Source: a virus. Taken from it: a DNA stretch of 64,000 nucleotides. Location: IMG/VR virus record IMGVR_UViG_3300034072_001149, positions 32,001 through 96,000 of that record. One strand, 5' to 3'. The notes below the pieces were generated by a model. The model saw only the letters and a program-made list of their open reading frames with translations, was not told where the DNA came from and did no database searches. This document shows, piece by piece, positions 60,715 to 61,503 of the stretch (the first letter of the stretch is position 1; each line of letters opens with the position of its first letter). Made by a program: the position numbers and the translations under genes.

Positions 60715-61503
60715 TCAACCATCAATAGGTGGGATCTTATTGATATCATCGCGCTGGGCCTGATACCAGTTGTAAACGCAACGATCCAGACCAATAGCAA
60801 TTTCAAGGACCAGAGCGTCCTTTTCCACAATGTCTTTCTTGCCCTGAAAGGTCAGCTTCTGCGGGAAATCAGTTCGTAGACTGATCGAGCAAACTTCCAT
60901 CCACTTGTCGCCGTTCCAAATCTCGACATCCATGGTTCTCTTGCTGTAAGAGGGCAGGCGATCGCTTTCGACAATACGGGTTGGCAAATGGACCATAGCG
61001 GCAATCATCTGCTGGACCTTGGTCAGCATGGCTTCCTGATAGTCCATGCCGGTATCCGCAGTAAAGATACACTGGAATTCCTGCTGGTAGAATTCCTTCA
61101 AGCGCATATGCTTGGTTGGCTGGACAATTTCCCTGCGAAAGCTTTTGCCAGCTTGCCACACAACCAAGGGAGGGAAAACCTTGGGATGAACATTGTTGAG
61201 TAAGTGCTGGGCATAAGCATAGCTACCCGGCGTGGTCTCCGGACGCAAAGCCAGCTCACGAGGGGCATTCTCAACCCGATGGTCTCCCCACTGAAGCCAG
61301 ATGTCATCCTCGGTATAGTTGACGTTTAGGAGATCTCGGGGATTGAGAAGCGGGGCTTCGATCATGAAGAACTTCCAGCGATCATTCATAGCCAGGAGGT
61401 CAGCCTGCACCCTCGCGGCAAAGAAGTCCCGCATGGTTTCCCGCAAGCGGATCTCTTCCTCATTCCAAAAGACGAGACCGTTGATGTTGAAGACGTTCTG
61501 CAT
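60715..61503 (-). CDS. Class II aminoacyl-tRNA synthetase catalytic core (alpha2 GlyRS-like) without anticodon-binding domain
   Basis: EAPLL (motif 1), LRPETT, GKSFRRE...MRLKEFYQQE (motif 2), EIAIGLDR (motif 3); only 262 aa, ending shortly after motif 3. Confidence 0.85.
   Translation of the reverse strand: MQNVFNINGLVFWNEEEIRLRETMRDFFAARVQADLLAMNDRWKFFMIEAPLLNPRDLLNVNYTEDDIWLQWGDHRVENAPRELALRPETTPGSYAYAQHLLNNVHPKVFPPLVVWQAGKSFRREIVQPTKHMRLKEFYQQEFQCIFTADTGMDYQEAMLTKVQQMIAAMVHLPTRIVESDRLPSYSKRTMDVEIWNGDKWMEVCSISLRTDFPQKLTFQGKKDIVEKDALVLEIAIGLDRCVYNWYQAQRDDINKIPPIDG

Follow-up and report, generated by a model that had tools for sequence, protein, structure and literature searches.

A stand-alone GlyRS-like catalytic core of giant phages and its relation to an adjacent amber-suppressor tRNA

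Comparison with described synthetases and suppressor modules

The alpha2-type glycyl-tRNA synthetases (GlyRS), with structures from M. tuberculosis (8t5n/8u2p), T. thermophilus (1ati/1b76) and N. equitans (5z5e), are the closest described counterparts of a protein that is encoded in a 64,000-nt stretch of the virus record IMGVR_UViG_3300034072_001149 (positions 32,001 to 96,000; hereafter referred to as the window), in which its gene follows a tRNA gene with the amber-reading anticodon CUA (tRNA-CUA). The phage enzyme has in common with these GlyRS the class IIa fold with motifs 1-3, a pocket of three glutamates (in RPET, QxE and an ExS-type motif), the HYS...RTDF block and a predicted dimer formed through motif 1. 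Unlike them, it is devoid of the N-terminal segment of ~60 amino acids (aa), of the insertion between motifs 1 and 2 and of the HGTP anticodon-binding domain, it carries EIA in place of EPS and RPETT in place of RPETA, and its identity to them is just 20-24%. In GlyRS the Ser of E-P-S shuts side chains out of the pocket; in the phage family a nearly invariant Ala236 stands in its place. Proteobacteria use an alpha2beta2 GlyRS that is unrelated to the alpha2 type; the known hosts of the phages carrying the family are proteobacteria, in contrast to the alpha2-type likeness of the phage enzyme. Judged by the absence of the anticodon domain, the altered EPS motif and scores far under the curated cut-offs, the enzyme is not a canonical GlyRS, and the family is best described as a minimal, so far uncharacterised form of a known class of enzymes. 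The reading favoured here, to which a probability of about 0.45 is assigned, is that of an anticodon-blind, glycine-activating enzyme acting on the acceptor ends of tRNAs; the enzyme and the adjacent stop-reading tRNA are probably not a dedicated pair.

Precedent for pairs of a synthetase and a suppressor tRNA is given by the phage 'code change' operons of TrpRS and tRNA-UCA (10.1101/2021.08.26.457843; PMC12636597). As in these modules (TrpRS, tRNA-UCA and RF1 in Jade phages; TrpRS:tRNA-UCA in AP1/HF2), the synthetase gene of the window adjoins a suppressor tRNA gene, both genes are in the standard code and stop-containing genes are located nearby. The code change modules comprise a full-length TrpRS and a matching tRNA of the Trp type in genomes that are recoded throughout, whereas here the code is standard, a Gly-type enzyme stands beside a tRNA that is not Gly-like, and enzyme and suppressor each occur alone. 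The co-occurrence expected of a synthetase/suppressor code change pair, a concept that is itself known for TrpRS:tRNA-UCA, is not seen for this locus.

The catalytic domain of PylRS (PylSc, delta-PylSn, ~270 aa) is likewise a class II core of similar size, and PylRS charges a CUA tRNA in an anticodon-blind manner. However, the similarity to PylRS is marginal (profile E 8e-5 to 1e-3), the GlyRS-like pocket differs from the large hydrophobic pocket of PylRS, and the adjacent CUA tRNA forms an ordinary cloverleaf with none of the peculiarities of tRNA-Pyl. Stand-alone cores without an anticodon-binding domain are also found in EpmA/PoxA, in the amino acid:[carrier-protein] ligases (3mey, 4h2w), in HisZ and in AsnA. 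EpmA, the ligases, HisZ and AsnA derive from LysRS, SerRS, HisRS and AspRS, respectively, and their similarity to the phage enzyme is at noise level (E 0.02-0.08).

Catalytic core, proposed activity and phage family

The enzyme had been described in an earlier note, made from the letters of the window, as a protein of 262 aa with motifs 1-3 and no C-terminal anticodon-binding domain, and this description was confirmed by the open reading frame (ORF), the Pfam scan, the alignment and the AF2 model. The class II core domain for G/H/P/S/T (PF00587) is its single Pfam domain (residues 81-243, 2.6e-11) and scored 44.4 bits against a cut-off of 29.3, so that fold, motifs 1-3 and domain score agree on a class II catalytic domain; the HGTP_anticodon domain (PF03129) was absent from the enzyme in the Pfam scan, and the AF2 model consists of one compact domain. 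The pocket was assigned by alignment with genuine, PF03129-containing alpha2 GlyRS sequences. In this alignment E89 of RPET corresponds to the Glu of GlyRS RPETA, E142 of QQE to the Glu of QME, and E234-I-A to E-P-S/T, and the proposal of the same note that PET, QQE and EIA represent the alpha2-GlyRS pocket with EPS changed to EIA proved correct. R241 aligns with the motif-3 Arg of GlyRS, motif 2 holds the ATP-binding Arg123 and Glu125 together with the second pocket Glu142, and the motif-2 loop has retained the GlyRS length and a conserved Lys.

Conservation was measured over 65 family members with identities down to ~30%. Invariant positions are T90 and T91 (E89 nearly so), S121, R123, E125, F138, Q140 and E142 in motif 2, P184, Y186, D192, E203, S206, R210 and D212 in the GlyRS-type block, and E234, D240 and R241 in motif 3, where A236 and G238 are nearly invariant. 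The patterns conserved in the family are RPETT, S-F-R-x-E, EF-x-Q-x-E, P-x-Y with D192 and E203, S-x-S-x-R-x-D and E-I-A-x-G-x-D-R. Because the catalytic and pocket residues are invariant, an active adenylate-forming enzyme is suggested, with glycine as the best guess for its substrate. Some class II paralogs are known to have lost catalysis, and the phage protein might likewise have a regulatory or structural role, comparable to that of HisZ or of the polymerase gamma accessory subunit; this is considered highly improbable, as relaxed catalytic constraint would not leave every ATP-binding and pocket residue invariant family-wide.

The AF2 model reached a pLDDT of 95.1 and a pTM of 0.92, low confidence being confined to the last ~13 residues. 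Its top Foldseek matches were GlyRS catalytic domains (8t5n, E 5e-15, TM 0.71), followed by ProRS. GlyRS was also nearest in searches of the PDB, both with the single sequence (2.5e-9) and with the profile of the 65-member family (5.2e-19); in the latter search ProRS (4e-6) and HisRS, PylRS and SerRS (~1e-4) followed, and ProRS, HisRS, PylRS, SerRS and ThrRS together covered the range from 4e-6 to 1e-2. In NCBIfam GlyRS was ranked first, yet far under the equivalog cut-offs (NF003211, 60.8 vs 312 bits; TIGR00389, 34.5 vs 243 bits). A homodimer model scored 0.83 (best control 0.00). The same mark was attained by 20 of 30 proteins with structures solved as same-chain pairs and by 1 of 23 with single-chain structures; the score may reflect likeness to solved class II dimers. 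Contacts agreed by at least 93% between runs, and the pLDDT of the partner was at least 86. The predicted interface is made up of motif 1 (residues 46-55) and residues 2-22 including NGLxFW, with residues 10-15 of one copy touching motif 1 of the other. From this model we infer that the enzyme would be a homodimer through motif 1.

According to the favoured reading, a catalytically competent and homodimeric class IIa core, derived from alpha2-type GlyRS, would bind ATP together with glycine, or with some other amino acid of very small size, and form the aminoacyl-adenylate. The amino acid would then be passed to the 3' end of a tRNA that is recognised at its acceptor end alone, most plausibly tRNA-Gly. 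The enzyme would thereby be part of a phage toolkit for translation and tRNA maintenance, together with CysRS, Pth2, a Pnkp-like enzyme and tRNAs, and its place behind the suppressor tRNA would represent inherited gene order in one subclade and not a family-wide functional coupling. We infer glycine as the substrate and tRNA as the acceptor. An acceptor tRNA that is read at the acceptor end only is suggested because the gene is often located among tRNA genes and a modest excess of tRNA-Gly is seen near it. A tRNA gene was present within 1 kb at 18 of 32 non-redundant enzyme loci; in the 12 of these 18 tRNA-flanked loci that have no CUA tRNA, 11 of the 44 tRNAs within 1 kb were tRNA-Gly, compared with a share of ~5-7% in full phage tRNA sets.

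Several points weigh against this reading. The excess of tRNA-Gly rests on few related, non-independent lineages, and the nearest tRNA was tRNA-Gly at only 2 of the 12 loci without a CUA tRNA. Since nearly all members have Ala for the Ser of EPS and Thr for the Ala of RPETA, the amino acid could differ from glycine. Efficient charging of tRNA is not assured, because the enzyme is acidic (pI 5.5) and is devoid of all the appendages by which GlyRS is known to grip tRNA. U73 is the standard discriminator of bacterial tRNA-Gly and was present in 24 of the 27 phage tRNA-Gly genes collected; the host GlyRS should therefore be able to charge the phage tRNA-Gly, and this reading then gives no reason why the phage needs an enzyme of its own. 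Finally, literature searches yielded neither a characterised truncated phage GlyRS nor biochemistry for any family member.

The amino acid might instead be passed to an acceptor other than tRNA, namely a protein, a carrier protein or a small molecule, as in EpmA, the ligases and AsnA, or the enzyme might synthesise a dinucleotide polyphosphate such as Ap4A. Core-only class II paralogs are mostly known to act on acceptors of this kind, which would fit an acidic enzyme without tRNA-gripping domains, and at 14 of the 32 loci no tRNA was found within 1 kb. Weak matches were obtained to amino acid:[acyl-carrier-protein] ligase (PDB E ~0.08, with 4h2w/3mey at 0.077-0.083; NCBIfam 0.024, with NF005479 at 13.6 bits vs a cut-off of 357) and to the PheS-related ligase SrmL (0.0011). 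Beside the likeness to GlyRS these similarities are marginal, however, and no gene for a carrier protein or target stood out as a neighbour when the recurrence of the window's flanking proteins was followed over 22 complete loci. Moreover, the motif-2 loop, which in class IIa enzymes touches the acceptor end, has kept the features of GlyRS, and the gene is often located inside tRNA arrays. A non-tRNA acceptor is therefore regarded as possible but doubtful.

Family members have ~220-290 aa and occur in phages of 300-640 kb. An indexed search returned 1901 relatives of 144-459 aa, those listed being ~240-325 aa long and many of them located on contigs of 250-960 kb, and an exhaustive search gave 285 cluster representatives, with none of GlyRS length among the best 150. 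No close homolog with an anticodon domain was found; the longer matches were solely distant canonical GlyRS sequences (E of at least 1.5e-5), and fused longer relatives were accordingly rejected. A separate small HGTP_anticodon gene was not found in the five genomes searched (the contig of the window, G001, G004, Phosso and CcrBL9). The PF03129 matches in G004 and Phosso are located inside full-length synthetase-sized ORFs, and that in the contig of the window is a 14-bit chance match within an SMC-like ATPase; a split GlyRS was thus rejected as well. Cultured carriers of the enzyme include Sinorhizobium phage Phosso (XYS97415.1, labelled 'serine-tRNA synthetase'; 61% identity), the Xanthomonas phage XbC2, five vB_BpoS phages of Brevundimonas and the Caulobacter Bertelyvirus group with CcrBL9 and CcrSC, and the labels given by depositors vary between 'serine-tRNA synthetase', 'RNA synthetase class II', 'aminoacyl-tRNA synthetase' and 'hypothetical protein'. 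Some members (P0121, P0122, P0126 and P0134, with 331-352 aa, and G039:C1:364549-365439) match in two stretches and carry ~70-90 additional aa between the motif-1 region and RPET, which might represent an extra domain or a mobile insertion.

Relation of the enzyme to the suppressor tRNA and the stop-gated Pth2

The gene of the enzyme was indeed found directly behind the CUA tRNA, the 3' end of which lies 52 nt before the enzyme ATG on the same strand. Neither a promoter-like site nor a convincing terminator was seen between them on this strand, which is weak evidence from a simple scan, for which shuffled sequence gave counts at least as high as those of the region. The earlier note had proposed the enzyme as a candidate orthogonal synthetase for this tRNA. 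In a dedicated pair of this kind the core would charge the adjacent G73 CUA tRNA without reading the anticodon, and a private amber decoding would switch on gated genes such as Pth2. Such a pair is favoured by the closeness of the two genes with no predicted terminator between them, by an arrangement that is kept in 8 clade genomes and in the more distant Phosso, by the retention of G73 in 9 of 9 adjacent tRNAs despite variation of the acceptor stems, by a suppressor that is in use and by the precedent of the TrpRS:tRNA-UCA operons. Additionally, the CUA anticodon removes an identity that many synthetases read, and an anticodon-blind enzyme would suit such a tRNA.

A dedicated pair would be expected to go together across phage genomes, and the co-occurrence of the enzyme with CUA tRNAs did not hold across independent lineages. 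Among 31 IMG/VR enzyme loci, a CUA tRNA was located upstream only in the 7 closest relatives of the window (71-86% identity); the remaining 24 had none within 6 kb, and ~10 were in or beside ordinary tRNA arrays. Between tRNA and enzyme there are 151-1875 nt in these relatives (L001-L007) and Phosso, and the whole 12-kb gene order is common to the window, its 7 closest relatives and Phosso. The adjacency is confined to this one syntenic subclade (the window clade of 8 and Phosso), and because the 12-kb block is syntenic within it, the adjacency has to be scored as a single evolutionary event. Phosso, L021 and the window clade group together with moderate support (88/86, 94/92) in a maximum-likelihood tree, and L021 is nested within this group; its genome (G004) has kept the enzyme but contains no canonical CUA tRNA among 35 tRNAs.

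Full tRNA sets of G002, G004, G008, CcrBL9 and Domovoi were determined with Rfam RF00005 and ARAGORN, as a pattern scan may miss odd tRNAs; LR745206 was checked by the tRNA pattern only. The enzyme is present without any stop-reading tRNA in CcrBL9 (28 tRNAs), Domovoi (25) and G008 (34), and G002 has no canonical CUA tRNA among its 66 tRNAs. One tRNA each with a 6- or 8-nt anticodon loop was observed in G002 (L107 c[6423-6506]), G004 (L118 701-776) and LR756504.1 (L097 c[1488-1563]); these odd loops contain CTA or TTA, with the anticodons given by ARAGORN as 'ct', 'ctta' and 'tcta'. Owing to these tRNAs the three genomes were not counted as suppressor-free, and since G002 has a TAG-gated Pth2, one odd-loop tRNA may be an unconventional suppressor. 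Canonical CUA tRNAs are located elsewhere in the enzyme-bearing genomes G001, G003, G005, G006, G007, XbC2 and Phosso.

In the opposite direction, an IMG/VR pattern scan for the same type of CUA tRNA gave 35 loci. A profile search, by which the positive controls G001, G004 and CcrBL9 were matched, was applied to 11 CUA-tRNA genomes of at least 90% completeness outside the window clade and found the enzyme in G039 only, 10 being without it. Altogether 11 of the 12 further complete suppressor-carrying genomes examined (CUA in 11, UCA in one) do not have the enzyme. In a search that matched the positive controls, it was absent from G009 with a CUA tRNA and from G010 with a UCA tRNA. G73-type CUA tRNAs are present in three complete enzyme-less genomes (G014, G028 and G038); G73 was therefore rejected as a mark of co-adaptation, and the sole hint of it is removed. 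Homologs without suppressor tRNAs, which the earlier note had named as an outcome speaking against the pair, thus exist in a part of the family (CcrBL9, Domovoi and G008), and the converse, suppressor tRNAs without the enzyme, holds for 10 of 11 genomes.

The features of the tRNA itself were also considered. Bacterial tRNA-Gly carries G1:C72, C2:G71, G3:C70 and U73. Orthologs of the tRNA-CUA are present in 8 related genomes with compensatory changes in the acceptor stem and an invariant G73, and all 9 adjacent CUA tRNAs have kept G73 and the CUCUAAA loop, while their acceptor stems covary and include C1:G72. With G73 and such variable stems, the adjacent CUA tRNAs do not have the acceptor set of bacterial tRNA-Gly. 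The core of the tRNA-CUA is closest to phage tRNA-Lys (up to 0.88 identity), its loop context and G73 also fit tRNA-Trp, and blastn of the suppressor against phage records yielded tRNAs annotated as Lys, Arg or Met. Classically, amber suppressors with a retained U35 receive their amino acid from the host LysRS or GlnRS, and a private synthetase is therefore not required; since the body of the tRNA-CUA is nearest to tRNA-Lys and U35 is kept, charging by the host is plausible.

Several CUA tRNAs may be present in one genome. The complete 462-kb genome G001, a relative of the window phage that contains locus L005, has three different ones (L038, L046 and L058), one with G73 beside the enzyme gene and two with A73 elsewhere, one of the latter within a 13-tRNA array. 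Several unrelated phage contigs (L191, L193, L195, L202, L208, L222 and L223) carry two tandem CUA tRNAs less than 10 nt apart, which differ in the discriminator (G73 beside U73 or A73) and in the acceptor stem, as would fit the joint retention of two amber suppressors that are charged differently.

The tRNA-CUA is evidently in use, since a conserved in-frame TAG gates the nearby gene of the peptidyl-tRNA hydrolase Pth2. From the start ATG at 59334 this gene reads MITNSFL, followed by TAG, by EAAARY...KLRIYSIIRGDLD and by M59211. All 8 clade genomes have the TAG at codon 8, the sequence on either side of it varies synonymously, and in these genomes ATG, GTG and TTG are absent between the TAG and M59211 or the Pth2 core. 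Gated Pth2 genes with different leaders were also identified in Phosso (codon 4), in G002 and G005 (codon 3) and at L153, L154, L155 and L225; TAG gates at codons 3-8 occur with different leaders in six lineages beyond the clade. G010 (L156) has a TGA gate and a UCA tRNA but no CUA tRNA, and G009 has a TAG gate and a CUA tRNA; because the gates match the tRNAs in both genomes and neither contains the enzyme, the gate codon tracks the suppressor anticodon and the enzyme is dispensable. At L225, a 48.6-kb phage contig (4610-5133), an amber-gated Pth2 (MNNDKNW-TAG-TDELKIF...) has a CUA tRNA ~70 nt before its ribosome-binding site, and no synthetase-like gene is present between them. Pth2 is the likely target of the CUA tRNA, and in the comparison of genomes it is the stop-gated Pth2 gene that emerges as the conserved partner of the suppressor.

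The single origin of the adjacency, the genomes in which either the enzyme or the CUA tRNA occurs alone, the gated Pth2 genes that are served by a matching suppressor without the enzyme and the Lys-like body of the tRNA all argue against a dedicated pair, which is regarded as unlikely. The candidate orthogonal synthetase of the earlier note is unsupported in view of this dissociation and of a tRNA that is not Gly-like. It is similarly improbable that in the subclade of Phosso and the window the core was co-opted to load the adjacent G73 suppressor with glycine or a small residue and so to time expression of the amber-gated Pth2; in that case, the dissociation seen across the family would be the trace of an older and more general role of the enzyme.

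Gene neighbourhood and implications

The window is derived from a 159-kb giant-phage fragment with an estimated completeness of 34%, which carries T4-type portal, baseplate and tail-fibre genes; amid the baseplate and tail-fibre genes, a single ORF of 3466 aa is located at 36609-47009 (+). The genetic code is standard, with a coding density of 0.92 and no gain if TAG is read as sense, and TAG is the rarest stop, ending 19 of the 199 called genes of the contig. Genome-wide recoding of TAG was rejected, as the density is already 0.92 and a split-frame scan across TAG gave mostly noise; in-frame stops were seen only as single gate codons such as that of Pth2. In this respect the contig resembles Xanthomonas phage XacN1, which has CUA tRNAs without detectable recoding (PMC5852040).

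The features are compiled in Table 1. The order of the block is CysRS, a 201-aa ORF, a K+ channel, the tRNA-CUA, the enzyme, a PTP-like phosphatase, Pth2 and a kinase-phosphoesterase, and by the predicted functions of its products it is a block of translation and tRNA-maintenance genes. CysRS is syntenic in the window clade and Phosso, the PTP-like phosphatase within the subclade only, and the K+ channel gene in most clade members, being absent from L002 and L003. The phosphatase gene ends in TAG (60241-60243, (-)), and read-through by the suppressor would extend its product into the start of the next ORF. The fusion protein at the end of the block resembles the polynucleotide kinase-phosphatase of RNA-repair systems. 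Outside the subclade, 22 complete IMG/VR loci were compared, and no relatives of the window's flanking proteins were found beside the enzyme gene, except for CysRS in one lineage; a conserved neighbouring protein partner was rejected on these grounds.

Table 1. Positions of the enzyme gene, its motifs and neighbouring features in the window (strand in the third column)
Feature	Position	Strand	Remarks
Stand-alone class IIa alpha2-GlyRS-like catalytic-core gene	60715..61503	-	262 aa, ATG to TGA; ORF list
NGLxFW, residues 8-13	61465..61482	-	N-terminal, family-specific, nearly invariant; predicted dimer interface
Motif 1 IEAPLL, residues 48-53	61345..61362	-	Class II dimer-interface strand; E49, P51 conserved
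RPETT, residues 87-91	61231..61245	-	First Glu of GlyRS-type ammonium pocket; aligned to GlyRS LRPETA
Motif 2 GKSFRRE...EFYQQEFQ, residues 119-144	61072..61149	-	Aligned to GlyRS FRNE...EFxQxE
SDRLPSYS...SLRTDF, residues 180-213	60865..60966	-	GlyRS-type block HYS...DxE...RTDFDL, by alignment
Motif 3 LEIAIGLDR, residues 233-241	60781..60807	-	Third pocket Glu234, catalytic Arg241; aligned to GlyRS EPSxGxxR
Amber-suppressor tRNA, anticodon CUA	61556..61632	-	Loop CUCUAAA, G73, encoded CCA, 77 nt; ARAGORN + sequence
Pth2 (peptidyl-tRNA hydrolase)	58876..59334	-	In-frame TAG at codon 8 (59311-59313); PF01981 1.2e-16
Further gated-Pth2 loci (L032, L103, L104, L153-L156, L225)	L032: 10103-10596
Cysteinyl-tRNA synthetase (CysRS), full-length type	62767..63999	-	Runs past window edge; PF01406 8e-97 + CysS_C, DALR_2 anticodon-binding parts
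Small K+ channel, two-transmembrane	61644..62105	-	153 aa, upstream of tRNA; PF07885 7.5e-12; phrog_14690 9e-30
PTP/DSP-like phosphatase, HCxxGxxRS loop	60241..60684	-	Directly downstream of enzyme; weak PF00782; phrog_5614 1.3e-17
AAA_33 kinase-like + calcineurin-like phosphoesterase (Metallophos) fusion	55946..57214	-	422 aa; conserved, end of block

Adjacency to a suppressor tRNA alone is insufficient to call an orthogonal pair; if the co-option within the subclade were true, the locus would provide a natural and very small one. As the cultured Sinorhizobium phage Phosso has the arrangement of the window, the system can be tested at the bench. Should these proteins of ~225-290 aa prove able to charge tRNA, they would rank with the smallest aminoacyl-tRNA synthetases occurring in nature, form a natural parallel to the engineered minimal class II cores that are used in arguments on the origin of synthetases, and offer a compact anticodon-blind scaffold for genetic-code engineering. 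Because the proteobacterial GlyRS is of the unrelated alpha2beta2 type, giant phages of proteobacteria, in which the family is abundant, would, if the enzyme works, bring a second and foreign route to Gly-tRNA into their hosts.

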